A stretch of DNA of 64,000 nucleotides. It comes from Bacteroidales bacterium. GTDB lineage: Bacteria > Bacteroidota > Bacteroidia > Bacteroidales > UBA1402. Under the pieces are notes generated by a model. It did not search any database. It saw only the letters and a program-made list of their open reading frames with translations, and had not been told where the DNA came from. Of the stretch, positions 21,513 through 43,840 are shown piece after piece. The stretch is from assembly GCA_017468435.1 (NCBI GenBank), contig JAFUIP010000007.1, positions 33,762-97,761 on the forward strand, written 5' to 3'. Each line of letters starts with the position of its first letter. Within the stretch, counting starts at the first letter, position 1. The translations under genes were made by a program, and so were the position numbers.

Positions 21513-21520
21513 TATTTTTG
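21513..21520 (+). promoter_or_regulatory. -7 promoter box (TATTTTTG) for the BamA/TamA-like gene
   Basis: Exact TAnnTTTG match, 19 nt before the ATG at 21539. Confidence 0.4.
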
Positions 21521-21538
21521 CGCAAACATTATCGACAA

Positions 21539-23827: not shown

Positions 23828-23839
23828 TGATGCTAAAGA

Positions 23840-25765: not shown

Positions 25766-25770
25766 GGGGT

Positions 25771-26274: not shown

Positions 26275-26308
26275 TGTATAATGTCTTAATTTATAGAATC
26301 AAAGTAAT

Positions 26309-26689: not shown

Positions 26690-26694
26690 GATGT

Positions 26695-28185
26695 TTACTG
26701 ATTTGAACGTTGTCGAGCTGTGGGAATATGCAATTGTTCGCGGTATTTGGCCACCGTGCGTCGGGCAATTCTGTAGCCTTTTTCCTGCAAGAGTTTTACC
26801 AAGGCGTCGTCGGTGAGAGCATGGCTTTTATCTTCAGCTTCAATGAGTTCCTGCATGATACTTTTTATTTCGCGCACCGAAACTTCTTCGCCGTCGGTGG
26901 TTTGCATAGATTCTGAGAAAAAGAATTTCAGCGGGAATATGCCGAATTCGCTCTGTACATATTTGCTGTTGCTCACGCGCGAAATGGTAGAAATATCCAT
27001 GCCCGTGTCGGCCGCCACATCTTTCAGTCGCATGGGTCTCAGTTTTTTCTCTTCTCCGCTCAAAAAGAAGGCTTCCTGTCTGTATAGAATGGCCTGCATG
27101 GTGCTGAGCAAGGTGTTCTGTCGTTGTCTGATGGCATTAATGAACCAGGTGGCCGATTCCACTTTTTGCTTGGCAAAGGCAATGGCATCTTTTTGGTCGC
27201 GGCTGATGTTCTTCGACTGTTTCCCGCTGCGAATCAAATCCTTATAGTATCTGCTCACATGCAAATCCGGTAGGTTGGTATCGTTGAGGCTGACGCTGAG
27301 TTTGCCATCGCTGTTGTCTACCAAGAAGTCGGGAGTGATGGCTCGACCGGTTTCGTTCATCAAAGAGCTTTCCCAGTCGTTGCCCGGCTTGGGATTGAGT
27401 TTGCTGATGGTCTTTTTTACGGCATTCATTTCGCTTTCGCTGATGCCCCAGTCCTGGCAGATTTTCTGAATCTTCATGGCCGAGAAATCCTCGAAATAAT
27501 TCTCTAACAGATGAATAGCTTGTTGTACTTCCTTGGTGGGATTCTTGCGTTGCAATTGCAAAAGCAGACATTCTTTCAGGTTGCGCGCAGCAATGCCGGC
27601 CGGTTCAAAACCTTGAATCATTGTCAGCACTTCTTCCATCTGTTCTTCATCCACATCGAGCGAGCGGTGAAAAGACAATTGGTCGGCGATGGTTTCCAAC
27701 TGAATGCGCAGGTAGCCGTCGTCGTCGAGACAGCCTATGATGTACTCGCCAATCCAATTCTCTGTTTCTTCCAAATCGAGGTCGGAAAGTTGCTGACGCA
27801 GAAAGTCTTGCAGGCTGTCGGTCTGAACGCCCAAGAAAAACTGACCACGTTCGTTGTCGGCATTCGGATCTTTGGCTTGGGTCTCGGCATAGTCGGCGGC
27901 ACGGTCGTCGTAATCGTCCTCGTAGTCGCTGAGCGTGTTTTCCGAAGCCTTGTCGTTTTCCTCGTTTTCAGGATAATTTTCGGCCAAATCGAAATCGTCT
28001 TCTTCGTTCAGATTGTTGTCCGAAGGAATGTCTTCCCCCAGTTCCAAAGCCGGGTTGCTGTCTATTTCGCGCAAGATGCGCTCTTCCATTTCCAAAGCAG
28101 GTATTTCCAACAGTTTTATCTGCTGAATCTGCATCTGGGTGAGGCCTTGCTGTTGTTTTTGTACTTGTTGCTGTTTTAACGCCAT
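26695..28185 (-). CDS. rpoN: RNA polymerase sigma-54 factor
   Basis: Gln-rich N-terminus, an acidic region, and the C-terminal RpoN box 'ARRTVAKYREQLHIP'. Confidence 0.9.
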   Translation of the reverse strand: MALKQQQVQKQQQGLTQMQIQQIKLLEIPALEMEERILREIDSNPALELGEDIPSDNNLNEEDDFDLAENYPENEENDKASENTLSDYEDDYDDRAADYAETQAKDPNADNERGQFFLGVQTDSLQDFLRQQLSDLDLEETENWIGEYIIGCLDDDGYLRIQLETIADQLSFHRSLDVDEEQMEEVLTMIQGFEPAGIAARNLKECLLLQLQRKNPTKEVQQAIHLLENYFEDFSAMKIQKICQDWGISESEMNAVKKTISKLNPKPGNDWESSLMNETGRAITPDFLVDNSDGKLSVSLNDTNLPDLHVSRYYKDLIRSGKQSKNISRDQKDAIAFAKQKVESATWFINAIRQRQNTLLSTMQAILYRQEAFFLSGEEKKLRPMRLKDVAADTGMDISTISRVSNSKYVQSEFGIFPLKFFFSESMQTTDGEEVSVREIKSIMQELIEAEDKSHALTDDALVKLLQEKGYRIARRTVAKYREQLHIPTARQRSNQ

Positions 28186-28230
28186 TTCTGTCGCTTTTTG
28201 AGTAATACCGCTAAAATTCGGAGCGCAAAA

Positions 28231-29913
28231 TTAATAATTAAAAGAGCTACCGCCAACAAATTCTCTCAGCAGAGAAGTGGGTGGAATTTCGTTGTCGGCC
28301 ACCGTGGCAATGTAATCCAAGAAACGCAGCAGACGGTTGGCCTCGGCATATTCCGGGCAATTCTGTGGCACGCTGCGCAAAACCGGTTCGGCATAACGTT
28401 TCAGCACCAGCAGTTCGAAAGACAAGGCAGAGTTGAAGAAAACATCGGCATTTTCCTGATAGGGGAAAATCCATTTGTCTTCTCCGGCGCGCACGCTTTT
28501 CCATCGGGCAATGGTGCTTCGGGCAGGCGTTCCACGGTATTGGGCGTCGCGTATCATGCGGCGAATGAGTCGGTTGTCGGTGGTGGCGATGCGGTTGTGA
28601 TCGTCGAGCGAAATGGATGTCAAAGCCGATACATAAATCTTGAACAATACATCGGGCGAGACCTTGGGCAATAATTCCGGATTGAGAGCGTGGATGCCTT
28701 CCAGGATAAGTGCCTGATTATCTTCCAAATGAATCTTCCTCTCTTCTAAGAATTCCTTCTTTCCCAAACTGAAATCATATCGGGGCACAATGACTTCCTT
28801 CCCTTGCAATAAGTTGTTCAAATCCTGGTTGAATAAATCCAAATCGAGCGCATAGAGCGATTCGTAGTCGTAGTCTCCCTTGTCGTCGAGCGGAGTCTGT
28901 TCGCGTTCCAGGAAATAATCGTCGAGCGAGATGGCGATAGGCTTGATGCCCATCACGGCCAATTGTACCGACAGGCGCTTGCTGAAGGTGGTCTTTCCCG
29001 ACGACGAAGGCCCCGATACCAAAATGATGCGCTTGCGCTGTTTCTGCGCCAAGATCGTATCGACAATCTGAGCTACACGCTTTTCCTGCAAGGCTTCCGA
29101 TACCTTTATCAAGTTTTCGGCCTCGCCTCTGATGCAACTCTCGTTGATGTCGCCAATGGTGCTTTGTCCCAGCAATTCGTTCCATTGCACAAATTCCTTG
29201 AAAATGCCGAACATCTTGGGTTGAGGAATATATTCTTTCAGTTCCTGAGGATTATTCGGATCGGGAACCCTAAGTAAGAAACCCTCTTTTTCACCGGGAT
29301 ATGGCTCTATGTCGAAAGTCGTGATGCGCTTGGTGCTGTAAGCCAATGGGCCATAGAAATGGTCTATATGTTCGCCCATCCGCGTGTAATGCGTATATAA
29401 ATGTCCGTAGCTGTTTAGCAGTTTTACCAAGTCTTGGCGGCCTTTTTCGCGGAATAGTTCGATGACCGTCGTCGTTTCCTCTTCTACCTGCTGAATGGGG
29501 ATGTCTGCGGCAGCAAGTTCGTGAACCCTTTTTTTGATGGCTTCCAAATCGTCGGCAGAAACCTTTTTGTTCAAATGCAGGTGACAGAAAAAACCATTCG
29601 ATACGGAATGCTCTATGCAGAAGCGCCCTTGCGGATACAATTCGTTCACGGCAGCCCCAAGGAGAAAGGTTAAGGTTCTGGTGTACACGCGCATGCCTTC
29701 TTGTCGGTCTATATCGATGAATTCCACTTGCGATGGATGATAAATTTCTGTGCCGAGATTTTCTGCTTTGTAATTGACCAAGGCGGCGATAGGTTCGAAA
29801 GACAAAAGCCCTTCTTCTCTTAATATCTCACTCATTTCGAACAAAGAAACACCGACAGGAAATAAGCGGCTTTGTCCGATGTTGCTGCAATTGATTTTGA
29901 TGGTTTTAGACAT
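28231..29913 (-). CDS. Uridine/nucleoside kinase-like P-loop protein with an N-terminal extension
   Basis: 'ILVSGPSSSGKTTFSKRL' P-loop plus 'DYESLYALDLDLFN' and 'ILEGIHALNP', typical of the PRK/uridine kinase family. The start is taken at MSKTIKIN. Confidence 0.65.
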   Translation of the reverse strand: MSKTIKINCSNIGQSRLFPVGVSLFEMSEILREEGLLSFEPIAALVNYKAENLGTEIYHPSQVEFIDIDRQEGMRVYTRTLTFLLGAAVNELYPQGRFCIEHSVSNGFFCHLHLNKKVSADDLEAIKKRVHELAAADIPIQQVEEETTTVIELFREKGRQDLVKLLNSYGHLYTHYTRMGEHIDHFYGPLAYSTKRITTFDIEPYPGEKEGFLLRVPDPNNPQELKEYIPQPKMFGIFKEFVQWNELLGQSTIGDINESCIRGEAENLIKVSEALQEKRVAQIVDTILAQKQRKRIILVSGPSSSGKTTFSKRLSVQLAVMGIKPIAISLDDYFLEREQTPLDDKGDYDYESLYALDLDLFNQDLNNLLQGKEVIVPRYDFSLGKKEFLEERKIHLEDNQALILEGIHALNPELLPKVSPDVLFKIYVSALTSISLDDHNRIATTDNRLIRRMIRDAQYRGTPARSTIARWKSVRAGEDKWIFPYQENADVFFNSALSFELLVLKRYAEPVLRSVPQNCPEYAEANRLLRFLDYIATVADNEIPPTSLLREFVGGSSFNY

Positions 29914-29969
29914 GATTCTAATATTTGTTAACGAAGCCACTAAAATAGTACTAATTTCCATTCTTTTTG

Positions 29970-29977
29970 TACCTTTG
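29970..29977 (+). promoter_or_regulatory. -7 promoter box (TACCTTTG) for the FKBP lipoprotein gene
   Basis: Exact TAnnTTTG match, 47 nt upstream of the ATG at 30024. Confidence 0.45.
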
Positions 29978-30023
29978 CGAAGTTTTTACGACATAATTAA
30001 CGACATTTTAATATTTACACACA

Positions 30024-30776
30024 ATGAAAAAATCTCTTTTTACCGTAGTGGCCATCCTTGGTTTGGCCGTTTCCAGCTTGGTATTGACCTCTTGTGGCGC
30101 AAAGGCTACAGAAGGTGAAAACGCCGAAGCTCCCGCACAGAAAGTAGTTAAAGCAAAATCCATCGGCAGTCTCGAAGATTCTTTGAGCTATGCATACGGT
30201 GTAGGTTTGGGCGACAATCTTCGTCAGAATTTCGAACAAATGCCCGTAGATTTGAATCTCGACATGTTCTTGAAGGCTTTCGAACAGACTTTGAAAGGAC
30301 AGGATGGCAAGTTGCGTATCAAGCCCGAAGAAGCTTATCAGGTGTTCCAGCACTGCATGATGGCTATCATGGAACAAGAAGCCCAGAACAACAAGAAAAT
30401 GGGTGCCGAATACATGGCCGAAAATGCTAAGAAAGAAGGCGTTGTTACCACCGCTTCCGGTTTGCAATACGAAATCATCACGCCTGCCGAAGGTGCCAAG
30501 CCCGTGGCCAGCGACCGCGTAAAGGTTCATTATCATGGTACTTTGCTCGACGGTACTGTTTTCGATAGCTCTATCGATCGTGGTACTCCCGCAGAATTCG
30601 GTGTTACTCAGGTTATTGCCGGTTGGCAAGAAGGTTTGCAGCTGATGAACGTAGGTTCAAAGGTTCGCTTTGTGATTCCTTCTGATTTGGCTTACGGCGA
30701 CCAAGGTGCCGGCCAGATGATTGCTCCCGGTTCAACCTTGATTTTCGAAGTTGAATTGCTCGAAATCTTGAAATAA
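30024..30776 (+). CDS. FKBP-type peptidyl-prolyl isomerase, FkpA-like lipoprotein
   Basis: Lipobox 'LVLTSC', an N-terminal dimerisation-like helix region, and the FKBP domain 'VKVHYHGTLLDGTVFDSS...GSTLIFEVELLEI'. Confidence 0.85.
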   Translation: MKKSLFTVVAILGLAVSSLVLTSCGAKATEGENAEAPAQKVVKAKSIGSLEDSLSYAYGVGLGDNLRQNFEQMPVDLNLDMFLKAFEQTLKGQDGKLRIKPEEAYQVFQHCMMAIMEQEAQNNKKMGAEYMAENAKKEGVVTTASGLQYEIITPAEGAKPVASDRVKVHYHGTLLDGTVFDSSIDRGTPAEFGVTQVIAGWQEGLQLMNVGSKVRFVIPSDLAYGDQGAGQMIAPGSTLIFEVELLEILK

Positions 30777-30798
30777 TCTTTTGAGAGACAATATTTTG

Positions 30799-30834
30799 AT
30801 AAGGGTTCTCTTTGACGGGGACCCTTATTTTTTG
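30799..30834 (+). terminator. Rho-independent terminator after the FKBP gene
   Basis: 8-bp stem ATAAGGGT ... ACCCTTAT followed by a T-run (TTTTTT). Confidence 0.65.
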
Positions 30835-30842
30835 GGAAAACT

Positions 30843-31280
30843 ATGAAGAAATTTGCATTGGCTCTTGTTACCGTCTTGAGCATGACCATGTTCTGCTCTT
30901 GCGATGGCTTGCTCCTTGGCGCCATGTTGCTGGGAGAAAGCATTATGTACGAAGACGAACCGGACTTCTCGTTTTTTGAGTGCGACGTTGATATTCAATG
31001 TATAAGCGATTCTGTTGCGCCCGACGGACAAAGACAGCATATCATGCTTTGCAGCGGTTATCTGAGCGGTTACGAAGGCGAGGTGTCTCTTGAAATCGAC
31101 AACCACGGCCTCAAGAAAGACTTTACCATGACCGGTGCCAGAATGCCCTTCTCCTTCACCTTCTTGCAGGCTGACGAGCGCCCCGGCAATCCCATCACTT
31201 ACAACATCAATGTCGGTACCGACTACAAGGGCAAACATTACGATATCATCCAGACCAGCCTTGTGGTGCTGCCGCATTGA
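30843..31280 (+). CDS. Small lipoprotein, unknown function
   Basis: Signal peptide plus lipobox 'MFCSC'. No recognisable motif. Confidence 0.45.
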   Translation: MKKFALALVTVLSMTMFCSCDGLLLGAMLLGESIMYEDEPDFSFFECDVDIQCISDSVAPDGQRQHIMLCSGYLSGYEGEVSLEIDNHGLKKDFTMTGARMPFSFTFLQADERPGNPITYNINVGTDYKGKHYDIIQTSLVVLPH

Positions 31281-31346
31281 GAGGGTTTGAAAATTTGTTT
31301 TTGAAGAGGCATCTCCTTATCTTCGCGCACAAAATAAAGTTTCCCG

Positions 31347-33188
31347 ATGAAAGAGTTTTTCAAATTGCTTTGGCGATTGGTGCCACCTTATAAGAAGCAG
31401 GTGTTTTTCAACGTGTTGAACAACCTGCTCTCTACTATTTTCAGTTTGTTTTCTTTTGCGCTCATCATCCCCGTGCTGGAGATACTTTTCCAACTGAACG
31501 AGGGCGCAAGCTATACTTATCACGAAAATATCTGGTCATTGCCCTTGGCCGACATGGGCAATGCGCTCAAAGACAATTTCTATTGCTTCTTGCTCAACAT
31601 CGTGGAAACCAAGGGCGGAGGCTTCACGCTGCTCATTCTCGGAACCTTTTTGGTGGTGATGACTTTGATGAAAACCGGTTTCATGTACTTGGCTTCGGTC
31701 AATATGATCACCATTCGTACTTCGGTGCTTCGAGATTTGCGTAACACTATCTATGCCAAGATTTTAACCCTGCCTTTGGGCTTCTTCTCGGAAGAACGCA
31801 AGGGCGACATCATTGCGCGAATGTCGGGCGACGTGACCGAAGTGGAAGCCTCTATCATGAGTTCTTTGGATATGTTGTTCAAGAACCTGATAATGTTGGT
31901 GATATATTTTGCGACGATGGTGTTCCTGAGTTGGGAGTTGACCCTCTTCGTGCTTGTTTTGCTGCCTATTGCCGGATTTTTCTTGGGACGCGTGAGCAAG
32001 CAGCTCAAAAAACCTTCGCGCGAGGGTCAGCATAAATGGGGCGAAATTCTTTCGCAAATCGAGGAAACGCTTTCGGGATTGCGTATTGTAAAGGCTTTCA
32101 ATGCAGAAAACCGTATTTACGAGAACTTTGAGAAGCAAAACAATCAGTTGCGTCGTATCACGGGCCGCATTTTCCGTCGTCAGCAGTTGGCGCATCCCAT
32201 GAGCGAATTCTTGGGAACCTTCATCATTGCCGTGGTACTTTGGTTTGGCGGAACGCTCATTCTCGGCGCCAACACAGGTCTTTCGGCGCAGGTTTTCATT
32301 TATTACCTTATTATTTTCTATAGCATCATCAATCCGGCAAAATCCTTTTCGCAGGCTTGGTACAGCATAGAAAAGGGCTTGGCCTCGATGGAGCGTATCG
32401 ACAAGATTCTGCAAGCAGAAAATAAGATTCAGGATCCCGCGCAGCCTAAGTCTTTGAAGGAATTTACCTCGCAAATAGAGTACAAACATGTGGATTTTCG
32501 TTATCAGACGGAGCAAGTCTTGAAAGATATTAACTTAGTGATTCCCAAGGGAAAAACCGTGGCTTTGGTGGGGCAATCGGGCTCTGGAAAATCTACGCTT
32601 GTCGATTTGTTGCCACGCTTCTATGATGTTGAAAATGGCGGCATTAGCATTGACGGCGAGGATATTCGCAACTATCGCGTGAAGGATGTGCGTGCGCTCA
32701 TGGGAAATGTGAACCAAGAAGCCATTTTGTTTAACGATACTTTCTTCAACAACATTGCTTTCGGAGTGGAAAATGCCACCATGGAACAAGTGGTAGAGGC
32801 CGCCAAAATTGCCAATGCGCACGACTTTATCATGGCCAGCGAAAATGGATACGACACCTACATCGGCGACCGCGGCGGCAAGCTCTCAGGCGGTCAGCGT
32901 CAGCGACTTAGCATTGCTCGTGCCATTTTAAAGAATCCGCCCATTCTCATTCTGGACGAAGCTACTTCTGCCCTCGATACCGAATCGGAACGCTTGGTGC
33001 AGGAGGCTTTGGAAAATCTGATGAAAAACCGCACTACCATTGTCATTGCGCATCGTTTGTCTACCATTCGCAATGCCGACCTTATCTGCGTGATGCGCGA
33101 CGGCAGAATTGTGGAACGTGGCACGCACGAGGAACTGATGCAGCAAGACGGCGCCTTCAAGCGTCTGTACGACTTGCAATTGACATAA
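31347..33188 (+). CDS. ABC transporter, fused permease/ATPase (MsbA-like exporter)
   Basis: Six-TM N-terminal half, 'GQSGSGKST' Walker A, 'LSGGQRQRLSIARA' signature and 'LILDEATSALD' Walker B. Confidence 0.85.
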   Translation: MKEFFKLLWRLVPPYKKQVFFNVLNNLLSTIFSLFSFALIIPVLEILFQLNEGASYTYHENIWSLPLADMGNALKDNFYCFLLNIVETKGGGFTLLILGTFLVVMTLMKTGFMYLASVNMITIRTSVLRDLRNTIYAKILTLPLGFFSEERKGDIIARMSGDVTEVEASIMSSLDMLFKNLIMLVIYFATMVFLSWELTLFVLVLLPIAGFFLGRVSKQLKKPSREGQHKWGEILSQIEETLSGLRIVKAFNAENRIYENFEKQNNQLRRITGRIFRRQQLAHPMSEFLGTFIIAVVLWFGGTLILGANTGLSAQVFIYYLIIFYSIINPAKSFSQAWYSIEKGLASMERIDKILQAENKIQDPAQPKSLKEFTSQIEYKHVDFRYQTEQVLKDINLVIPKGKTVALVGQSGSGKSTLVDLLPRFYDVENGGISIDGEDIRNYRVKDVRALMGNVNQEAILFNDTFFNNIAFGVENATMEQVVEAAKIANAHDFIMASENGYDTYIGDRGGKLSGGQRQRLSIARAILKNPPILILDEATSALDTESERLVQEALENLMKNRTTIVIAHRLSTIRNADLICVMRDGRIVERGTHEELMQQDGAFKRLYDLQLT

Positions 33189-33226
33189 GATTTTCGGCAA
33201 CATCACCCAAGTAATTATGCCGGCGT

Positions 33227-33910
33227 TCAAAACAAGGATAGTTGCTGATCTTCTTCGAGCAGTTTGAAACTCATTCTGTGATAGGGACTTACTCCATTTT
33301 CTGCAATGGCTCGACGATGGGCCGGGGTGGGGTAGCCTTTGTTTTCATTCCATTGATAATGAGGATATTTTTCGTGTAATGCCAACATGGCATCGTCGCG
33401 GTATGTCTTGGCTAAAACGGAGGCAGCTGCGATAGACAAATATTTGCCATCGCCTTTTACCACCATGGTGGCCGGAAATTCCGGATAATCGTCGGGCAAT
33501 CCGCTCTGGGAGGTCTCTGCTTTCGATTTGCCATCTTCGCTTAAACGATGCAGTTGCAGTTGCGAGGGCTGACGGAAGCGGTTGCCATCTATGAGCAGGT
33601 GCTCGGGACGCAGCCTCAACTGGGCTACCGCGCGATGCATGGCCAGCAGCGAGGCATTCAGAATATTCAGCTTGTCGATTTCCTGCGCGCTCACTTCGCC
33701 CACGGCCCAGGCCAAGGCTTCTCTTTCAATGATGGGGCGCAGTTGATAACGCTGTTTCTCAGTGAGTTGCTTCGAGTCGTTGAGCAGTTCGTTGTGGAAA
33801 TCTTCGGGCAGTATGACGGCTGCCGCAAATACAGATCCGGCCAAACATCCCCTTCCGGCTTCATCGCAACCGGCTTCGATTCTTCCTTTCTCCAAATAGG
33901 GTAAGAGCAT
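33227..33910 (-). CDS. rnhB: Ribonuclease HII
   Basis: '[20 protein letters not shown]', 'DSKQLT', 'LIDGN' and 'VKGD...IAAASVLAK'. The true start is MLLPYLEKG; the longer ORF extension overlaps the neighbouring gene. Confidence 0.85.
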
Positions 33911-33927
33911 AATTTCCAAACGATTGT

Positions 33928-34908
33928 CTATTCTGAATAAATAATGTGCATCAAGGTGTTTCCCACCGCCTGCAAGGTCAATTTGTCGATGTTGCTCATG
34001 TCGTCGTGCTGTGTGTGCCAACCTTCGAAAAATCCGCCGCGGTCGTTGTCGAAATCTATGATGTCTATGCTGGGAATTCCTGCCAATGTGTTGATATACA
34101 GGTGGTCGTCGGTAAGTATGCCGCCATCGGCCTGGATGAAAAATTGTCCGTAACCCAGTTCTTGAGCTTTGTTCCAAACCTTTTGAACGACATCGGGCGC
34201 ATAGCGTTTCGAAATATATTCCCACATGAAGCAGGCATTTCGCGTGCCCACCATATCCAAAAGAATGCCGTAATTGGCTGTGTATCCGGCTTTATGCGGA
34301 TGCTTTGCCCAATATTGCGAGCCTAAACACCAAGAATCTTTCACGTCTTTTCCCCAATCGGGCACGCCGTAATCTTCCAGGTCGAAAAAGATGATATCGA
34401 CGCCTACGGGCAGTGTCTGCGCTTTTCCTAATTGACGGGCCACTTCCATGAGAACGCCCACGCCGCTGGCCCCATCGTTGGCTCCGAGAACGGCTTTCAT
34501 TTGCAGATTCTTAGTCTTTTCCATATCGCTCCAAGGTCGGCAATCCCAGTGGGCAAACAGTAAAATGCGTTGTGCGTTTTCGGGCTGGAACGAAGCAATG
34601 ATGTTGCGCATGGGTAAGGTTTTGCCGTCCCAGGCGCGGATGTCTGCCTTTTGTTCCTGCACCTCGGCTCCGAAACTTTTCATCTTGTTTACCAAATAGT
34701 TGCCGCAAGCTTCGTGAGCCTTTGAGGCGGGAGTTCTTGGGCCGAATGCCACTTGTTCGGCTATGTAACGATAGGCGCTGTCGGCCGAAAATTCAATGCT
34801 GGTTTGCGGTGCATTGTCTCTTTGTGTCGAGTTGTTTTTCTTCTTTCCCTGACAAGCGCTGAAAAGCAACAGAGAAATGAGGCTGTATAGGATGATTCTT
34901 TTAGTCAT
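33928..34908 (-). CDS. M28-fold glutaminyl-peptide cyclotransferase-like lipoprotein
   Basis: Lipobox 'LLFSAC', 'FGPRTPAS', '[12 protein letters not shown]', '[17 protein letters not shown]' and '[10 protein letters not shown]', resembling the animal-type QC known in Bacteroidota. Confidence 0.6.
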
Positions 34909-36793
34909 GCTGATGTGTTTTGGCAAATGATTTTACTTCGTTTAATACGCGCAAGAAGTTGCCTCCCAATATTTTATCGAGATCTTCCTGGCTATAACCT
35001 TCGCGCAATAATTCGCGCACCAAATTGAGAAATTCTCCGCAATGATTGCAGCCGACAATGCCACCGCCACCGTCAAAATCACTGCCTATGCCCACGTAGT
35101 CTATGCCCACCAAATCGCGTACATAATTGATATGGGCAAGGGCATCTTTCACTGTGGCTTCGCTCTCTTTGGCTAAAAATCCACCGTAAAGACAGATGCC
35201 CATCATGCCACCTTTTGCGGCCAAGGCCTTTATTTGCTCGTCTTTCAGGTTGCGTCGATGTTGGCAAAGCGCCCAAGCGGAAGAGTGCGAACAGATAATG
35301 GGCGCTTCGGACATTTCGATGGCGTCGTAGAAGGATTTTTCGCTTGCGTGCGACAGGTCGATGATGATGCCGGCACGATTCATGCGCTTCACGGCTTCCT
35401 GTCCGAAACAGCCGATACCATCGTGTTCAGGATGGGTGGCCTGCGAGGCAGAGTCGCAGACGTCGTTGTGTCCGTTGTGGCAAAGCGTGATGTAACAAAC
35501 GCCCATTTGGGCAAATGCGTCGATGAGCTGTAAGTCTTTTCCTATGGCGTATGCATTCTCGATGCCTAAGAATATGGCCCGGCGGCCGCTCGCCTTGCAG
35601 GCTCGCAGCCCGCCCTCGTCGCACACCAACTCGCAATCGTCGGGCAGAGCCTTGGCGCGGGCCATCGTTTCTTCGAGCAGACGTTTTGCCTTGTCGGTGG
35701 CCGCTTGTAAAGCCTCCTCATCGCGTCCGAGTTGCTTGATGTAAGCCGCCATGACGATGCTGTCCAGACCTCCGTCTTGCATTTTGTCGAGATCCACGCG
35801 GTTGTCTACCAGTTCCAGCGCCTCTTCGCCCTGCGCATCAAAGTCGATTTTTCCGCGGGCAATGTTGCCCCCTTTTTTCAAATGATAATCGCCTTCGAAA
35901 AACATGGGCGCGTCGCAATGCAAATCTATGCTGATAGCTTTTTCCAAGCATTTCCGGCTTTGACGATAGAGTAGGGCTTCGTTGTGCAACCAAGCAAAAA
36001 GGGCTTGCATTTCCGGCTGACTATCGACCAAACATTCCGGATGCCATTGCACACCGATAATAGGCTTGTATTCAGTAGATTCCACGGCTTCGACCACGCC
36101 ATCCGGACTCCATGCCGACACACGCAATCCTTTTCCGATGCTCCTCACTGCCTGATGATGAAAACTGTTTACTCTCAGGTTTTTATTCTTTGAAAATGTA
36201 TTGATATCTTCCTCGGGATGCGCAGCATAATACGCATTAAAAATTGAAAAAAGCAAGCTGTCTTCGGCCAGTTCTGCCTTGTGCGTGCTCTGCTCGCGCG
36301 CCTCGCTCTGACTGTGCTGCAGCAAGCCTACCGCCGTGCGTTCCTTATCGAACTCCGATGTCGCGCAAACCTCCGTCTCGTTGCCCTTGAATTCGCTGGG
36401 CAAATCCTGATAAATGCGTCCGCCCAAGGCTAAGTTGAGCAATTGCTCGCCGCGGCAGATGCCGAGAATGGGGAGTTGCATGGCTAAGGCCCTGCGAATC
36501 AACGGAAATTCGTACTGGTCGCGCAAGGGGTTGATGCTGCCCAAAGCCTCGATGCCTTGTTCGCCAATCAGTTCGGGCGTGAAATCGCCGCCGCCGCTGA
36601 AAATGATTCCGTCGAGTCGAGCCAACACCGCATCCAGCAGTTCATTACTCGCACTCGAAATTGCAGGTAAAATCACAGGGCAGGCACCGGCCTTTAGCAC
36701 AGCGTTCACGTATGTCTTGGCCAAAAGATGCTGGCCGTTTTCCTCGCTGAAGTTGCCACTGATGCCTATATAAGGAATGTCGTTTTTTTGCAT
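34901..36793 (-). CDS. Fusion protein: class-I glutamine amidotransferase/peptidase C26 (PuuD-like) plus membrane-dipeptidase family M19
   Basis: N-terminal half has 'GIIFSGGGD', 'PILGICRGEQLLN', 'VNSFHHQAV' and 'GVQWHPE'. C-terminal half has 'IDLHCD', 'DLSHASEKSF', 'PIICSHSS' and 'GIGSDFDGGGG'. The start is taken at MQKNDIPYIG. Confidence 0.7.
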   Translation of the reverse strand: MQKNDIPYIGISGNFSEENGQHLLAKTYVNAVLKAGACPVILPAISSASNELLDAVLARLDGIIFSGGGDFTPELIGEQGIEALGSINPLRDQYEFPLIRRALAMQLPILGICRGEQLLNLALGGRIYQDLPSEFKGNETEVCATSEFDKERTAVGLLQHSQSEAREQSTHKAELAEDSLLFSIFNAYYAAHPEEDINTFSKNKNLRVNSFHHQAVRSIGKGLRVSAWSPDGVVEAVESTEYKPIIGVQWHPECLVDSQPEMQALFAWLHNEALLYRQSRKCLEKAISIDLHCDAPMFFEGDYHLKKGGNIARGKIDFDAQGEEALELVDNRVDLDKMQDGGLDSIVMAAYIKQLGRDEEALQAATDKAKRLLEETMARAKALPDDCELVCDEGGLRACKASGRRAIFLGIENAYAIGKDLQLIDAFAQMGVCYITLCHNGHNDVCDSASQATHPEHDGIGCFGQEAVKRMNRAGIIIDLSHASEKSFYDAIEMSEAPIICSHSSAWALCQHRRNLKDEQIKALAAKGGMMGICLYGGFLAKESEATVKDALAHINYVRDLVGIDYVGIGSDFDGGGGIVGCNHCGEFLNLVRELLREGYSQEDLDKILGGNFLRVLNEVKSFAKTHQHD

Positions 36794-36886
36794 GATTAGT
36801 CTCTTTTTGCAATATCCGCAGGATAGGGCGGGGAGATTGCACATAAAATCCGCTGTAAAGATATTGCATTTCGAGAAAAAATGTAC

Positions 36887-36894
36887 TACTTTTG
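36887..36894 (+). promoter_or_regulatory. -7 promoter box (TACTTTTG) for tRNA(CAT)
   Basis: Exact TAnnTTTG match, 30 nt before the mature tRNA 5' end. It lies within a 16-mer, ACTACTTTTGCCTGCG, that recurs at 58387..58402. Confidence 0.5.
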
Positions 36895-36923
36895 CCTGCG
36901 ATTTCACTAAATAAAGTGTCATC

Positions 36924-37044: not shown

Positions 37045-38586
37045 ATGGATTTGAGCGGTATTAAAAACATTGTTTTCGATTTTGGCGGCGTTCTGGTAAA
37101 CCTCAATCAGCAAGCCTGCATGGACGAACTCACACGCCTGGGCGTTCCCAATATCGAGGATTATCTCACGGCTTACGGCCACGTGGGTATTTTTGGCGCA
37201 TTCGAAAACGGCGATGTGGATCTGCCCACTTTCTGCCGCGGCGTGCGCGAACAATTTCATCTCGATTGCGAAGATATCGACGTAGAGAATGCTTGGGCAA
37301 AGTTTCTGGAAAACATTCCATACAAAAAACTGAAATTGGTGTACGCCTTGTCGAAGAAATATCGCATTTTCATTTTGAGCAACACCAATCCCATTCATAT
37401 CAAGAGTTTTGCGCTCTTCGATCAGGCTGGATTTCCCTATAAGGAATGTGTGGAAAAGCCCTATTATTCTTTCCAGATTCATCATTCTAAGCCGAGTTTG
37501 GAGATTTTCCGTTATGTTACCGACGATGCCGGCATCTTGCCGGAAGAAACGCTTTTGGTAGATGATAGCCCCAAGAATTGTGCCGCAGCGGCCAGTTTGG
37601 GATGGAAAACCTATTGTCCCGGCACTTCCGAAGATTTTTGTGAAGATCTTTTCCCCGAAGAAACCGCCTACATTATGAGTCGCGATTTCCAAGCGCCTCC
37701 TTTTCAGGCTTGTGTGGCTACCATGGGCTTTTTCGATGGCGTACACAAAGGACATCAATTCCTGATAAACGAGTTGCAGACCTTGGCCGACAAAAAACGA
37801 ATGCCTTCTCTGTTGCTGAGTTTCTGGCCACATCCACGCAAGGTTTTGCAGAGCGATTATTGTCCCAGTCTGCTTTCCTCTTGCGAAGAAAAGAGCGAAC
37901 GCTTGCATCATAGCCTGGCCGACAAGGTGGAAATGCTGCCCTTTACCACGGAAATGGCCGATATGACGGCCCGCGAATTCATGGAAAAAATCTTGCGAGA
38001 TCGTTATCATGTGCGTTGTCTGCTTATGGGTCACGATCATCATTTTGGCAAGAATGGCAAGAGTGAATCTTTCGAAGATTATCAGCGTTACGGCGCCGAA
38101 TTGGGCATAGAAGTCTTGCGCGCGGAGCCTTATTGTCAGGATGATGTCTTGCTCAGTTCTTCCTATATCCGTCGTTGTTTGCAGGAAGGTCGCATCAAGC
38201 AGGCCAATGAGGCTTTAGGTTATGCGTATTCTTTGGAAGGCGTTGTGTCAGAGGGTTATGGCAATGGTAAAAAGATGGGTTTTCCTACGGCTAATCTGTG
38301 CCTTTCAGACGATAAACTTGTTCCGGCTCGCGGGGTGTATGCAACTCGCGTTCAACTTGACGGACAGACATATCGCGCCATGCTCAACATAGGTACGCGT
38401 CCCACTTTTTGCCAGGACGACACATGCAGCATCGAAGTGCATATTCTTGATTTCGAAGGTGATATTTATCAGAAGAAACTTCGTGTGGAATTCTTGCAAT
38501 ATTTGCGTGAAGAAAAAGCTTTTGCCTCGGTAAGTGATTTGCAGGCGCAATTGGCCGAAGATCGCAAACAAATCAGTTCGATGTAA
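37045..38586 (+). CDS. ribF: Fusion protein: HAD-superfamily phosphatase plus bifunctional riboflavin kinase/FMN adenylyltransferase
   Basis: N-terminal ~200 aa: 'IVFDFGGVLV' (motif I), 'LSNTN' (motif II), 'VDDSPKNCAAA' (motif IV). The remainder is RibF: 'ATMGFFDGVHKGHQFL', 'FWPHPR', 'GFPTANL', 'MLNIGTRPTF', 'VHILDFEGDIY'. Confidence 0.8.
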   Translation: MDLSGIKNIVFDFGGVLVNLNQQACMDELTRLGVPNIEDYLTAYGHVGIFGAFENGDVDLPTFCRGVREQFHLDCEDIDVENAWAKFLENIPYKKLKLVYALSKKYRIFILSNTNPIHIKSFALFDQAGFPYKECVEKPYYSFQIHHSKPSLEIFRYVTDDAGILPEETLLVDDSPKNCAAAASLGWKTYCPGTSEDFCEDLFPEETAYIMSRDFQAPPFQACVATMGFFDGVHKGHQFLINELQTLADKKRMPSLLLSFWPHPRKVLQSDYCPSLLSSCEEKSERLHHSLADKVEMLPFTTEMADMTAREFMEKILRDRYHVRCLLMGHDHHFGKNGKSESFEDYQRYGAELGIEVLRAEPYCQDDVLLSSSYIRRCLQEGRIKQANEALGYAYSLEGVVSEGYGNGKKMGFPTANLCLSDDKLVPARGVYATRVQLDGQTYRAMLNIGTRPTFCQDDTCSIEVHILDFEGDIYQKKLRVEFLQYLREEKAFASVSDLQAQLAEDRKQISSM

Positions 38587-39457
38587 TATCCACTTGTTCT
38601 TCCAATGCTTCGATTTCCTCTTGCATCGACTTCAGGTAGTGCTGTTGGATGAAAATTGTGGCGATCAGGACGAAAATGACCAAAGCTAGTGTAAAACCGG
38701 AAATGCAGAGGAATAAATTTCTTCTGAATCTGATGTCGCGCAGGGCCTCGTCGGCGTTGAGATATCGGTTTTCAGGAAGTTCTTGTGTGCATTTTTCCAG
38801 GATTTTCCGAAGGTAATGCGGTTGTCTTCCCTGACATTTTTCCTGAATGTACAACATAATTTTTCCAACGGCATAGATATCGCTACGCGCATCGAATTTC
38901 TCTCTGTTCTTGCTTTGCAATTCGGGAGCGGCAAATTGCGAATTGGTGCCGGCGGTATATCCGTAATGGTCTTCAAAGCAGAATCCTAAGTCGATAATCT
39001 TGACGTCGTTGTTTATCTGGGTGATAAGAATGTTGTCGGGCTTCAAATCGAGGTATGCCACGTGTTTATCGTGCAAGGCTTTCAGTCCCTTCATCAATTG
39101 GATGAAGAATTTTCTAAGGTGTTTTGTCTTGCGGAAATATTTCGGGTCCTTGGCGATTTTCTCTTCCAACGTGAGTCCGTTGATATGCTCCAGCAGCAGG
39201 TAAATGCCTTTCTCGTTCTCGTTGAGCGATACATATTTGACGATGTAGTCGCTTTCGATGCGATTTCCTACTTCGAATTCCTTGTGGAACATTACCCGAT
39301 AGCGCCAGTTGTCTTTGTGTTCGGGGCGGAGTTGCTTCATGAAGTAGTCTTTGCCTTTAAGACGCACCCGATACGACAAGGATGTCGAGCCTTGTCTTTG
39401 CAGCAATTCTACTTTTTCGAACTGTTCCGAAGTGTGGATGAAGTCGGATGCCAGCAT
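38573..39457 (-). CDS. Ser/Thr protein kinase-like protein, non-RD type, C-terminal TM anchor
   Basis: 'FMKQL' (beta3 Lys), 'YLDLKPDNILI' (catalytic loop with YLD in place of HRD), 'DLGFCF' (DFG-like) and 'AAPE'. TM 'LFLCISGFTLALVIFVLIATIFI' near the C-terminus. Confidence 0.7.
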   Translation of the reverse strand: MLASDFIHTSEQFEKVELLQRQGSTSLSYRVRLKGKDYFMKQLRPEHKDNWRYRVMFHKEFEVGNRIESDYIVKYVSLNENEKGIYLLLEHINGLTLEEKIAKDPKYFRKTKHLRKFFIQLMKGLKALHDKHVAYLDLKPDNILITQINNDVKIIDLGFCFEDHYGYTAGTNSQFAAPELQSKNREKFDARSDIYAVGKIMLYIQEKCQGRQPHYLRKILEKCTQELPENRYLNADEALRDIRFRRNLFLCISGFTLALVIFVLIATIFIQQHYLKSMQEEIEALEEQVDITSN

Positions 39458-39466
39458 GCTAAAAAT

Positions 39467-39476
39467 CCCCCCCCCC
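39467..39476 (-). repeat. Homopolymeric G10 tract (C10 on the + strand) in the 24-nt spacer upstream of the kinase start codon
   Basis: Read directly from the sequence. Coordinates were anchored with the ORF-track frames and carry a +/-1 nt uncertainty. Confidence 0.85.
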
Positions 39477-39481
39477 GTTCA

Positions 39482-40060
39482 TTATTGCTTGGTTATCAGG
39501 TATTTAATTCCGTTTTCTTTACCGCAGACATAGTTACATGGCGCGCCTCCTTTGTGAATGAGGCAAGACAGGAACAGCGGCTCGTTCTCGATGAATTGTC
39601 CGCAACGGAAGGTGTCTTTCTTGCAAAGTTTGCTATTGATGGATTCAAGTACGGTGAAGAGCTCGTGGCCTTCGTAGCGTATCAGTATGCTGCGGTCGGG
39701 ATTCCACTTAATGCGTATTTCTGTGCCGACTCTGAGTGAATTGGCATACAATTGGTTGTTGAGGATGAAATCGCTCTCGATGGAATTGGTCTGGCTCGAA
39801 TATTGAAGGAAACTTTCCCAACCGGTGTATCCGATTAACTGAGAAAGAATATTGAGCGTGTCCAAACGAGGTTGTCTGATATTCTTTTTACCCAGATAAC
39901 CCCAGAATCTTTTCAGCGTCATGGCGCTGATGGTGTCTTTTGTTTTATCGTAAATGCACATGGAGAGATAATCGAAATCTCGCGGCGTGTGCATATTTCT
40001 TCCTACGGTCATCTCTACGGAAGGCCGTAGAGATTCAAACACAATTTCAGTATTATCCAT
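39482..40060 (-). CDS. Hypothetical 192-aa protein, first gene of the kinase operon
   Basis: Intact ORF with its own promoter box. The N-terminal segment 'MTLKRFWGYLGKKNIRQPRLDTLNILSQLIGYTGWESF' resembles a small helical module seen at the N-termini of diverse Bacteroidota proteins. The C-terminal domain is unrecognised. Confidence 0.5.
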   Translation of the reverse strand: MDNTEIVFESLRPSVEMTVGRNMHTPRDFDYLSMCIYDKTKDTISAMTLKRFWGYLGKKNIRQPRLDTLNILSQLIGYTGWESFLQYSSQTNSIESDFILNNQLYANSLRVGTEIRIKWNPDRSILIRYEGHELFTVLESINSKLCKKDTFRCGQFIENEPLFLSCLIHKGGAPCNYVCGKENGIKYLITKQ

Positions 40061-40127: not shown

Positions 40128-40135
40128 CAAAAATA
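40128..40135 (-). promoter_or_regulatory. -7 promoter box (TATTTTTG on the minus strand) for the 192-aa/kinase operon
   Basis: Exact TAnnTTTG match, about 68 nt upstream of the ATG at 40060. The leader contains a CTCTTT/AAAGAG hairpin. Confidence 0.4.
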
Positions 40136-40189: not shown

Positions 40190-40234
40190 AATTTAAAAAT
40201 AAAATAAGCAGCTACAACATCGTTGTAACTGCTT
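40190..40234 (-). terminator. Rho-independent terminator of tRNA-Val
   Basis: 13-bp stem (AAGCAGUUACAAC / GUUGUAGCUGCUU, one G-U pair) followed by a U-rich tract on the minus strand. Confidence 0.7.
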
Positions 40235-40241
40235 GATTGTG

Positions 40242-40316
40242 TGGGCGCTGACGGATTCGAACCGCCGACCCTCTGCTTGTAAGGCAGATGCTCTGAACCA
40301 GCTGAGCTAAGCGCCC
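40242..40316 (-). tRNA. tRNA-Val (anticodon TAC)
   Basis: The reverse complement folds as a cloverleaf: acceptor GGGCGCT/AGCGCCC, anticodon arm TCTGC-CTTACAA-GCAGA, T-arm GGCGGTTCGAATCCGTC. CCA is not encoded. Confidence 0.9.
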
Positions 40317-40351: not shown

Positions 40352-40433
40352 CGGCTAATTTTTATATCTGCAAATTATTTGATGATTTTTTTGAAAAAAA
40401 TTCCGTTTTTGGGGTTGGAAGAAGTCGTTTTTG

Positions 40434-40654
40434 AGGTTTGCACTAATTTTCTCAGCCCTTTGGGCCTCGCAATCAAACCTTGCTATTAGGTTTGCACTAA
40501 TTTTCTCGTCGCTCCGCGCCTCGCAATCAAACCTTGCTCTTATTAGGTTTGCACTAATTTTCTCAGCCCTTTGGGCCTCGCAAACAAATCTTCTTTCGAA
40601 GTTTGCACCAATTTTCTCGGTACTTCGTACCTCGCAAATTAGGCTGCACCTCGG
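40434..40654 (+). repeat. Tandem repeat family A: four units of 54-57 bp (GGTTTGCACTAATTTTCTC + short GC hairpin + CTCGCAA...)
   Basis: Direct reading. Units start at about 40434, 40488, 40545 and 40599. A fifth partial copy forms the purB promoter at 41026..41046. Confidence 0.85.
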
Positions 40655-40708
40655 AAAAACAAAATCGACAACTTGCTTTTATTTCTCCATCTTCTCGCTT
40701 CGATAAAG

Positions 40709-40982
40709 TTTGAAGCAAGAAGCTTCCTTCTATATTTCAGCCTCTGTAAAAACTTGAAGCAAGAGGCTTTTTGCTATATTTCAGCCTCTATAAAAAGCCT
40801 GAGGCAGGCTTTTCGCTATATTTCGCCTCAATAAAGCCGATAGCAAGCTATCTGCTTTATCTTCGGCTTCAATATAGCAAGCTATCCGCTTTACCTCGGC
40901 TTCAATGTAGCAAGCTATCGCTTTATATTCGGCTTCAATATATCCTGATAGCGACTATCGCTTTATATTCGCTCGAATCTGG
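40709..40982 (+). repeat. Tandem repeat family B: about seven degenerate units of 33-46 bp (hairpin + GCT(A/T)TAT(A/T)TTC(A/G)GCCTC(A/T)ATA-like tail)
   Basis: Direct reading. Units start at about 40709, 40754, 40800, 40839, 40877, 40910 and 40947. Confidence 0.8.
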
Positions 40983-42457: not shown

Positions 42458-43840
42458 ATGACAACAGACAACGAAAAATGGCAGGGAAAGCCTGAGGAAG
42501 GTGCCTACAATGCCGGCCGTGAAGGTAATGATTTCCGTAGCAGCTACGGTAGAGAAAGAAGTTTTGATCGTCCCAGACGTAATTTCCGAGAAGGTGGAGA
42601 ACGCTCTTTCGGCGAACGTTCATTTGGTGGTGAACGTCGTCAGCACAATGGAGAACGCTCTTTCGGAGAACGCAGAAGTTTCAACAACGACCGTCCGCGT
42701 CGTAATTTCAATAATGAAGGTGGCGAACGCTCCTTCGGAGGCGAACGTTCTTTCAACAAGGAACGCTCTTTTGGTGGTGAACGTCGTCAGCACAATGGCG
42801 AACGCTCATTTGGAGGTGAACGCTCTTTTGGAGAACGCAGAAGTTTCAACAACGATCGTCCTCGTCGCAGCTTCAACAACGAAGGTGGTGAGCGCTCATT
42901 CGGCGGTGAACGTTCTTTCAACAGAGAACGCTCTTTTAATGGCGAACGCTCATTTGGTGGTGAACGTCGTCAATACAATGGTGAACGCTCATTTGGTGGA
43001 GAACGCAGAAGTTTCAACGGCGATCGCCCTCGTCGTCCCAGAATCGGTGGCAAGAAAGAGAATCCCGAATGGCTGGCCGAAAACAATTTCAAGGCTCCTA
43101 AATATGCGCCCAACCTCGATCCGACAACGCCTATCCGCTTGAACAAATTCTTGTCGAATGCAGGTATTTGCTCACGCCGCGAAGCCGACGAATATATCCA
43201 GGCCGGTGTGGTAAAAGTGAATGGCGAAATCGCTACTGAATTGGGTGTTAAGGTAATGCCTACCGACGAAGTGATGTTCCACGATCAGCCCGTGCGCATC
43301 GAACGCAAAGTGTATGTGTTGCTGAACAAGCCCAAGGATTGCGTGACTACTTCCGAAGATCCTCAAGAACGTCTTACCGTAATGGATTTGGTGAAGAATG
43401 CTTGCTACGAACGTATTTATCCCGTAGGTCGTCTCGACCGCAATACCACCGGCGTGCTGCTCCTTACCAACGATGGTGACTTGGCATCGAAACTGGCTCA
43501 TCCCAAGTACGAAAAGCGTAAAATTTACCAAGCTACCCTCGACAAGGATCTGCCTCAGGAAGTGATGGACGAAATTGCCAAGGGCGTGGATTTGGAAGGT
43601 GAAATGATTGCCATCGACGAAATCAGCTATGTGAACGAAAAGCCCAATGTGATTGGTTTGGAAATTCACTCAGGACAGAATCGTGTGGTTCGTCGTATTT
43701 TCGAAAAATTCGGTTACAAAGTGTATAAACTCGATCGCGTCTATTTTGCAGGTCTGACCAAGAAGAATCTTCCCCGCGGAAAATGGAGACATTTGACAGA
43801 AAGAGAAGTTGGTTTGCTTAAAATGGGCGTATTTGCATAA
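42458..43840 (+). CDS. rluB: RluB/RsuA-family pseudouridine synthase with a ~195-aa repetitive Arg-rich N-terminal extension
   Basis: S4 domain 'IRLNKFLSNAGICSRREADEYIQAGVVKVNG', catalytic 'VGRLDRNTTGVLLLTNDG' and 'KIYQATL'. Confidence 0.85.
   Translation: MTTDNEKWQGKPEEGAYNAGREGNDFRSSYGRERSFDRPRRNFREGGERSFGERSFGGERRQHNGERSFGERRSFNNDRPRRNFNNEGGERSFGGERSFNKERSFGGERRQHNGERSFGGERSFGERRSFNNDRPRRSFNNEGGERSFGGERSFNRERSFNGERSFGGERRQYNGERSFGGERRSFNGDRPRRPRIGGKKENPEWLAENNFKAPKYAPNLDPTTPIRLNKFLSNAGICSRREADEYIQAGVVKVNGEIATELGVKVMPTDEVMFHDQPVRIERKVYVLLNKPKDCVTTSEDPQERLTVMDLVKNACYERIYPVGRLDRNTTGVLLLTNDGDLASKLAHPKYEKRKIYQATLDKDLPQEVMDEIAKGVDLEGEMIAIDEISYVNEKPNVIGLEIHSGQNRVVRRIFEKFGYKVYKLDRVYFAGLTKKNLPRGKWRHLTEREVGLLKMGVFA
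42548..43042 (+). repeat. In-frame coding repeats inside rluB: 14 'ERSF' and 3 'RRSF' micro-units arranged in three larger blocks, each ending in NDRPRR/GDRPRR
   Basis: Counted in the translation. DRPRR occurs at residues 37, 78, 133 and 189. Confidence 0.85.

Follow-up and report, generated by a model that had tools for sequence, protein, structure and literature searches.

Receptor-type Hanks kinases, such as PknB/StkP with their PASTA domains and PknD and PknH of Mycobacterium, combine an N-terminal cytoplasmic Pkinase domain with one transmembrane (TM) helix and a C-terminal extracytoplasmic sensor. In one such system, PknH-EmbR of Mycobacterium tuberculosis, the receptor kinase is encoded beside the regulator that it phosphorylates. 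Plants have non-RD receptor kinases with leucine-rich repeats (LRRs), among them FLS2, EFR, and XA21, while the Hanks-type kinases of the Bacteroidales, a dominant gut order, are to our knowledge almost unstudied. Phase variation through homopolymers is known in Neisseria, Haemophilus, and Campylobacter, whereas the Bacteroidales are better known for invertible promoters. A further point of comparison is the methylation-associated defense system (MADS; Maestri et al. 2024, cited in PMC11842806). Here, we analyzed a 64-kb stretch of contig JAFUIP010000007.1 from a Bacteroidales bacterium (the window, whose coordinates are used for all its features), which carries on its minus strand a two-gene module (38573..40060). 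The upstream ORF encodes a 192-aa, predicted cytoplasmic protein, here called the partner (39482..40060), and the downstream ORF encodes a 294-aa Hanks-type non-RD Ser/Thr kinase (38573..39457). We read this locus as a phase-variable partner-kinase signaling cassette, present here as a sensor-less variant, and assign this reading a probability of roughly 0.55. In literature searches, we found neither this pair nor LRR kinases of the Bacteroidales described; while the kinase is of a known kind, four features are new as far as we know: an obligatory partner family, the occurrence of this family in MADS-like operons, a lineage without LRRs, and a repeat at the gene junction.

The pairing of the two genes is widely conserved. 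Scanning a single genome from each GTDB species yielded 198 loci, of which 80 were retrieved; metagenome contigs were examined besides, and individual loci are labeled with L-numbers. All 80 loci come from uncultured metagenome-assembled genomes (MAGs), mostly of the ruminant hindgut, and nearly all are labeled Bacteroidales, with two contigs placed in bins labeled Clostridia-class. The cassette is present at least twice in several genomes. Wherever the sequence continues downstream, in the 80 loci as in the metagenome contigs, a Pkinase gene directly follows the partner gene, with the possible exception of L071. Of the seven loci that lack a kinase, six stop at the contig or locus edge just past the partner, and in the seventh, L071, BLAST found no kinase in the ~6 kb downstream of the partner. 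The gap between the two genes is usually 0 to 35 nt or is replaced by an overlap; in the window it measures 24 nt. A second class of kinases, 397 to 404 aa long and devoid of LRRs, is likewise preceded by a member of the partner family, a 183-aa protein (hhalign, 99.7%). An earlier note on this DNA, made from its sequence alone, had allowed that the pair might not be neighbors elsewhere and that the 192-aa frame might lack homologues; instead, the two are conserved neighbors in essentially every related locus, and the partner has thousands of homologues.

The module also appears to be transcribed on its own. A promoter box, TATTTTTG, lies at 40128..40135 on the minus strand (reading 40135..40128), 68 nt before the partner ATG, and fits TAnnTTTG, the Bacteroides -7 promoter consensus. 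This motif occurs no more than 150 nt ahead of the partner start in 58/80 related loci, with a mode at 26 to 31 nt, against a background of 0.071 per 150 nt. Farther upstream, tRNA-Val(TAC) (40241..40316, minus strand) is followed by a 13-bp hairpin and T-run at 40234..40206 (tRNA plus terminator, 40206..40316), and this terminator insulates the cassette from upstream transcription. These observations support a self-contained operon of two genes under its own promoter. They agree with the earlier note, which had described two minus-strand ORFs behind their own promoter box, a tRNA-Val terminator, and a 14-nt overlap between the convergent 3' ends of the kinase gene and ribF (38573..38586), the last of which is also present in L089 and in L101 to L103.

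The kinase matches the Pfam model Pkinase (PF00069) over aa 22 to 204 with 102.3 bits (cutoff, 31.7; E = 3.8e-29) as well as PK_Tyr_Ser-Thr, and its kinase domain spans aa ~14 to 245. We aligned the window copy with 70 relatives from partner-linked loci (n = 71). Invariant in all 71 are the beta3 lysine (K41), the alphaC glutamate (E60), the catalytic D137 and N142, the DLG motif (D156-L-G, aa 156 to 158), the APE motif (A177-P-E, aa 177 to 179), D193 of subdomain IX, and R231 of subdomain XI; an activation-loop Thr or Ser (T168) is found in 67/71. The Gly-loop is degenerate in the same alignment, reading G23-[A/S]-T-S with a single Gly in place of the canonical GxGxxG, and position 136, the site of the HRD arginine, holds L, M, A, C, V, or S but never R. 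As no member has an Arg immediately ahead of the catalytic Asp, the kinase family as a whole is non-RD. The missing HRD Arg and GxGxxG mark a non-RD variant and do not exclude the protein from the Hanks family. Past the catalytic domain, a single TM helix (aa 248 to 266; 38660..38716, minus strand; hydropathy, 2.82 over 19 aa) is flanked by the basic segment RFRRN on its N-side and by an acidic segment on its C-side, which, by the positive-inside rule, points to an N-in/C-out topology with a cytoplasmic catalytic domain. The protein ends in a 28-aa acidic tail (38576..38659, minus strand) that is predicted to be periplasmic. The motifs and the single TM helix with its acidic tail are those listed in the earlier note, and they support the prediction that the kinase is active and held at the membrane by its C-terminal TM helix.

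What the earlier note had missed is the LRR-receptor ancestry of this kinase. The usual relative is 520 to 628 aa long, with a kinase domain followed by a TM helix at ~250 to 270 and a further 260 to 360 aa of BspA-type LRR_5 repeats (E = 1e-35 to 2e-47). These relatives thus share the layout of PknB/StkP, PknD, and PknH, with a BspA-type LRR_5 sensor in place of the PASTA repeats, beta-propeller, or PknH-type sensor of those kinases; they also keep the catalytic residues, but the family is non-RD, has a degenerate Gly-loop and a dedicated upstream partner, and the window copy is sensor-less. The same relatives, though not the window copy, resemble the plant LRR kinases in that an LRR ectodomain, one TM helix, and a non-RD Ser/Thr kinase are joined in one polypeptide. 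In contrast to the plant proteins, however, the order of the parts is reversed, with an N-terminal kinase and C-terminal LRRs, the repeats are of the BspA/LRR_5 type, and the origin is independent. In most of the 520- to 628-aa relatives, the TM helix lies at the position that matches the window copy, whose acidic tail occupies the place of their juxtamembrane linker; indeed, alignments to the kinases of L021, L024, and L074 reach query residue 290. Since just 28 aa follow the TM helix, a folded extracytoplasmic sensor domain is not present, and the window kinase is a sensor-less derivative of an LRR receptor kinase.

This short form is maintained. In the closest species-level relative, L009 (MAG RGIG371), the gene order is that of the window (purB, tRNA-Val, partner, short kinase, ribF, tRNA-Met), and the kinase, 269 aa long, stops 2 aa past the TM helix. 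The presence of a short kinase at the syntenic locus implies that the LRR domain was lost before these lineages split. Between the window and L009, the partner is 59% and the kinase 53% identical, compared with 97% for purB and 82% for ribF. Against L089, which is 96% identical, the kinase has a dN/dS of 0.085 (25 synonymous and 9 nonsynonymous changes), the partner one of 0.14, and purB one of 0.027. Thus, the pair evolves fast over long spans and is constrained over short ones, and the short kinase is maintained under purifying selection. One could alternatively regard the window kinase as a decaying, truncated pseudogene of an LRR receptor kinase, given that the ectodomain of nearly all relatives is absent and that other short or split kinases of the family look like frameshift products: in L092 and L093 (4001-5607), what appears to be a frameshift has divided the protein into two overlapping ORFs, one for the kinase (273 aa) and one for the LRR_5 part (269 aa), and the kinases of L017, L035, L063, and L081 are truncated. 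Yet all catalytic residues of the window copy are intact, its dN/dS is low, a short kinase with its TM helix is kept at a syntenic locus where the pair is just 53 to 59% identical, and the ORF ends cleanly in the conserved ribF overlap, so that we consider a decaying remnant very improbable.

The partner, in turn, has no match in Pfam, NCBIfam, or PADLOC, and its family profile finds no PDB sequence, in line with the earlier note, which had been unable to assign it. A word search nevertheless recovered at least 171 homologues (clusters at 90% identity) with 45 to 90% identity over 95 to 100% of the length, and the family comprises 3,617 representatives at 50% identity with E <= 1e-3, 388 of them at E <= 1e-30; the best 150 representatives are nearly all ~190 aa long. 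By this measure, the partner represents a large undescribed family without a Pfam model, marked by the motifs PRDFDYL, TLKRFWGY, and ES-NSKL--GD. An AF2 model built on 45 sequences (pLDDT 91) features five helices (aa 3 to 89), a lower-confidence linker, and nine beta strands (aa 103 to 191), matching the helical N-half and beta-rich C-half that had been proposed from the sequence. The N-domain carries a net charge of +4 in the window copy (family mean, +3.3), while the C-domain is slightly negative. The interdomain linker holds an invariant residue, S96. Fourteen positions are conserved regardless of whether the partner accompanies an LRR kinase, a 397- to 404-aa kinase, or a MADS-like operon (D28, L32, T48, K50, R51, T68, L69, S96, R123, N142, S143, L145, D149, and G180), and the window partner carries all family invariants (D28, T48, K50, R51, T68, S96, R123, N142, S143, and D149). 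A Foldseek search with the full model, which the earlier note had proposed, gave nothing significant in PDB (best E = 0.058) or BFVD; the C-domain, described as beta-barrel-like, weakly resembles small barrels of the MoaF and Sm-like types (E >= 0.06). As in PknH-EmbR, a membrane Hanks kinase is here linked to a small cytoplasmic protein with a helical and a beta-rich part, an analogy that involves no homology but offers a model of how the two proteins might work together. EmbR has winged-HTH/BTAD and FHA domains; the partner shows neither, with no FHA domain detected by Pfam and none among the best Foldseek matches of its C-domain. Two further proteins that had looked like clues proved uninformative: P0366 (429 aa), in which the partner is joined to CutC, is probably a gene-calling fusion, and P0251 is a tandem duplication of the partner N-domain.

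A clue to the role of this family came from its distant members. Homologues of the partner are absent from phage, and only two marginal matches were found in plasmids, one of which leads to a MADS locus: this plasmid-collection match in Phocaeicola massiliensis is a distant member of the partner family (hhalign, 98.7%; ~25 to 26% identity). The locus to which it belongs (L095/L097; OY726016.1, record 19045-35492) is, according to PADLOC, an operon of mad2 (methyltransferase [MTase]), mad5 (specificity subunit), mad6 (a 1,383-aa kinase), mad7, and mad8, and it ends with a PP2C phosphatase, a 210-aa unfamiliar protein, and, as the last gene, the partner-like protein. Three further loci (L098, L099, and L100) carry, in this order, a Mad6 kinase (NERD plus two kinase domains), MAD7, a ~1,820-aa protein, PP2C, and a partner-like protein that is 48 to 61% identical to that of P. 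massiliensis. In all four independent MADS-like loci, the partner-like gene stands directly or one gene after PP2C, in an operon whose kinase is 1,370 to 1,383 aa long. The partner-like gene matches no PADLOC mad model and may represent an unrecognised MADS component; the extra ~210-aa protein between PP2C and the partner-like gene occurs in L097 and L098. Given that the family occurs both in the kinase pairs and in MADS operons, it accompanies Ser/Thr kinases and phosphatases in two settings that are unrelated, which is the strongest evidence here that the partner is a phospho-signaling component.

The same observation gives weight to the main rival of our reading, in which the module serves in defense against phage or other mobile genetic elements (MGEs). 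Here, a minimal kinase plus adaptor akin to the kinase/phosphatase/adaptor arm of MADS would be triggered at the envelope or by infection, and the phosphorylated partner or host targets would abort infection. The earlier note had likewise suspected an accessory signaling or defense-type module, and the suspicion of defense holds insofar as a distant clade of the partner regularly closes MADS-like operons (26% identity; hhalign, 98.7%). Several other features agree with a defense role, namely, the divergence of the pair, far faster than that of its flanks at the syntenic locus, the paralogous copies in several genomes and their varied genomic contexts, AbiEii genes near some loci, the parallel between LRR-linked non-RD kinases and plant immune receptors, and a simple-sequence repeat typical of contingency loci (see below). 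On the other hand, the similarity to MADS does not extend to the window as a whole. No MTase, specificity (Mad5), MAD7, Mad8, or PP2C gene and no effector domain was found in it, tblastn with the Bacteroidales MADS protein set matched just the kinase and the partner, and the two partner clades are only ~25% identical. Unlike Mad6, with its NERD and tandem kinase domains in ~1,380 aa, the window kinase is a small membrane protein of 294 aa that shares 29% identity over 118 aa with Mad6 of P. massiliensis and scores 56.6 bits against NCBIfam MADS6 (cutoff, 460). Its PADLOC and NCBIfam matches (PD-T4-6, mad6, PglW, and PknB) cover the kinase fold alone and none beats Pfam Pkinase; the best PADLOC match, PD-T4-6, reaches 97 bits (E = 2.3e-28) compared with 102 bits for Pkinase, and the LRR-bearing relatives score the same. 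In this respect the earlier suspicion is not supported, since the kinase matches appear generic and the flanks are housekeeping genes. The partner, moreover, has no PADLOC match, no phage homologues, and merely the two marginal plasmid matches, the locus is syntenic between species, and a periplasm-facing sensor suits the sensing of envelope or environment better than intracellular phage detection. We therefore regard a defense role as unlikely on balance, while taking it seriously as the foremost alternative.

The genes upstream of the cassette provide a different hint. Among the 63 loci that extend far enough upstream, 57 have a divergent gene as their nearest upstream neighbor, compared with a background fraction of 0.31 for opposite-strand neighbors in the same loci. 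This gene encodes an LRR_5 protein in 17/63 loci (L011, L020, L023, L030, L031, L033, L036, L040, L045 to L047, L052, L061, L071, L072, L079, and L084), compared with 10/335 other genes of the same loci (Fisher P = 8e-9). These LRR_5 proteins are BspA-type and ~260 to 1,800 aa long, all but one exceeding 500 aa; among the other upstream genes are those for Sel1, Big_2, and zinc-ribbon proteins and for housekeeping enzymes. Apart from the LRR_5 neighbors, which neighbor clustering had merged into the kinase cluster, no further gene family recurs beside the pair in that clustering. When the LRR ectodomains of the kinases were compared with the LRR proteins encoded next to them, the own neighbor ranked top in just 1/16 loci, without special similarity, and there is therefore no sign of gene conversion or recent duplication. 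A frequent divergent LRR_5 neighbor fits a regulator placed beside its target gene. It also bears on a further alternative, in which the partner would be a cytoplasmic regulator or scaffold, inhibiting or activating, that gates the kinase, while the true substrates are encoded elsewhere. The tight and often overlapping gene junctions, which imply co-production in set ratios, would suit such a scaffold, as would the position of the partner beside the kinase in one context and after PP2C in another, where an adaptor might be expected, and the strong conservation of both partner domains without a recognizable output domain. A divergent surface-protein gene, in contrast, hints at transcriptional output and would not be expected for a pure scaffold. 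We consider this alternative rather improbable.

Between the two genes lies the second feature that the earlier note had missed, a poly-G tract. The 24-nt partner-kinase spacer reads TAATGAAC-G10-ATTTTTAGC, followed by the kinase ATG, and its G10 (39467..39476, minus strand) is the sole G/C run of 8 or more nt in the window. An upstream ATG (39480..39482, minus strand) overlaps the partner stop codon (TAATG) and is a possible, translationally coupled kinase start for tract lengths divisible by 3. Four tract lengths were found among near-identical sequences. In L089, with G9, the upstream ATG is in frame and yields a 302-aa kinase. With G10, in the window and the identical L101, it opens a 7-codon upstream ORF (uORF) that ends 1 nt before the kinase ATG. 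L102, identical save for the tract, has G11 and a 24-codon out-of-frame uORF that runs across the kinase start, and L103, again identical save for the tract, has G12, which brings the upstream ATG back into frame (303-aa kinase). Over ~1,975 nt, L102 and L103 differ from the window by the tract gap alone. The position of such tracts is also nonrandom: the 80 loci (798 kb) hold 11 G/C runs of 8 or more nt, of which 7 lie at the partner-kinase junction (binomial P = 1.3e-10), spanning at least four or five lineages, and another 2 immediately precede a partner or an inverted kinase. Besides the window species, G/C homopolymers of 8 to 12 nt were noted in L017, L021, L027, L028, L034, L043, L051, L066, and L078. 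With its G9 tract, L017 has an out-of-frame kinase start that G8 would restore, and in an Alloprevotella clade, a poly-C at the partner 3' end decides whether the partner has a C-terminal extension. Scans of metagenomes for the pattern returned no further tract alleles. A G/C homopolymer of 8 to 12 nt at a gene start or junction, whose length varies and changes the frame relation, looks like a contingency locus, and from this pattern we infer phase variation by the tract. It differs from the known contingency loci in that it lies between two co-transcribed genes rather than inside one ORF, and in the window, a downstream ATG could bypass it.

If the locus is indeed a phase-variable signaling cassette, the kinase would bind and phosphorylate the partner as its dedicated cytoplasmic output or adaptor. 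This role of the partner as substrate or output is one that we infer only; the best guess for the phosphorylated site would be S96 in its linker. In the full-length relatives, ligand binding by the LRR domain would control the kinase, whereas the sensor-less kinase may be constitutive or controlled by other proteins via its TM helix and tail. Slippage of the tract between G9 and G12 would alter the in-frame coupling of kinase translation to that of the partner, and kinase dosage would thereby vary between cells. It is tempting to speculate further that the pair forms the core of a phase-variable envelope-surveillance system of gut Bacteroidales, in which the LRR non-RD kinase acts as a pattern-recognition receptor and signals through an adaptor family shared with MADS to defense or surface remodeling, the window copy being constitutive or a decoy with its dosage set by poly-G slippage; we consider this wider scenario doubtful.

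Several observations weigh against the signaling-cassette reading. The window cassette lies behind a co-directional tRNA and terminator and thus lacks the divergent arrangement, so that this copy has neither a divergent neighbor to regulate nor a sensor domain. The ATG downstream of the tract could start the window kinase at any tract length, and homopolymer sequencing error could partly explain the length differences in metagenome assemblies, although it does not explain the positional enrichment of the tracts. Finally, a DNA-binding function of the partner is a weak lead. When modeled alone, the N-domain again folds into five helices (pLDDT 86.5), and ~15 of its top 50 Foldseek matches in PDB are XRE, cI, Cro, or POU proteins, all at E > 1. 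These XRE-like matches have TM scores of 0.41 to 0.56 (TMq, 0.41 to 0.49; TMt, up to 0.56), which is below significance. No HTH Pfam match was found among 45 partner members at E <= 10, and hhalign gave a probability of 0.5% against a small, six-sequence XRE alignment, five sequences of which were entered by hand; an HTH in the N-domain is thus unsupported by sequence. The gene order and the weak XRE-like resemblance recall HipB-HipA and with it a toxin-antitoxin system, in which a small HTH antitoxin is encoded upstream of a growth-arresting kinase toxin. However, the kinase belongs to PF00069 rather than to the HipA fold, with no HipA family among its Pfam matches, it is membrane-anchored, and its relatives are receptors with periplasmic LRRs, while the partner, at 190 aa, has an extra beta domain and no HTH_3 signal. 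A HipBA-like system is accordingly as remote an explanation as a pseudogene, and both are poorly supported.

The partner family is of interest beyond this locus because it is very large and linked to membrane receptor kinases and, through its sister clade, to the kinase/phosphatase arm of a phage defense based on methylation. It offers a handle on two questions, the function of bacterial LRR receptor kinases and the contribution of kinase and PP2C to MADS-type systems. The sensor-less copy of the window is a natural minimal version of ~1.5 kb that is suited to biochemistry, and the poly-G tract suggests that some Bacteroidales add homopolymer slippage to invertible promoters as a means of phase variation.

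The cassette also occurs in other arrangements. In one clade (L006 to L008, L078, and L082), the kinase is convergent to the partner, and the two genes have upstream regions that repeat each other in inverted orientation, TATTTTTGCAAAAA box included (L006, 4901-4993 versus 7685-7741; L078, 4390-4487 versus 7166-7237, with a G10 run there as well). In L006 and L078, such inverted copies may have arisen by promoter duplication or may be left over from an inversion. An invertible-DNA switch was considered for them and rejected, as the inverted repeats are duplicated promoter regions upstream of each gene, with no demonstrated switch. Two cassettes stand in tandem in L059 (5992-11056), and L080 (3773-9871) holds a second partner copy. 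Moreover, a ~520-aa radical-SAM/SPASM enzyme with flanking ORFs of 37 to 57 aa adjoins several cassettes, lying ~0.6 to 1.5 kb downstream of the 397- or 404-aa kinase in L090, L091, and L094 and upstream in L032; this may reflect a RiPP-like neighbor or simple synteny.

In the window, the flanks of the module are all housekeeping, comprising a Peptidase_C26-M19 fusion, tRNA-Met, ribF, tRNA-Val, purB, and an S4/pseudouridine synthase gene. The earlier note had called the module visibly AT-richer than its neighbors and had taken this composition, together with the tRNA gene beside it, as marks of an accessory module. Neither point is supported as stated: the GC content of the module is 0.448 compared with 0.478 for the window, which corresponds to the 10th percentile of same-size windows and is ~1 standard deviation (SD) low, the GC content at third codon positions (GC3) of its genes (0.58 and 0.54) is not below that of ribF (0.50) and purB (0.53), and the gene order is syntenic in the diverged L009, with flanks that are housekeeping rather than a defense island. 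Recent horizontal acquisition as judged by composition was rejected on the same grounds, with GC just ~1 SD low and a locus that is syntenic in L009. Among the flanking genes themselves, ribF (37045..38586, plus strand; ORF call and domain scan) encodes a 513-aa fusion of a HAD hydrolase with FAD_syn and Flavokinase, which is also found in L009 and L101. A single 673-aa ORF (34901-36922, minus strand) joins Peptidase_C26/GATase to a Peptidase_M19 membrane dipeptidase, and the S4 plus pseudouridine synthase protein (42458-43840, plus strand) has an N-terminal extension of ~200 aa made of degenerate GERSF/RRNF-type repeats. Between tRNA-Val and purB (40429-40942), three tandem-repeat arrays adjoin one another, with periods of 54/111 nt (3.8 copies), 44 nt (3 copies), and 33 nt (3 copies), and part of this repeat region is shared with the relative L089.

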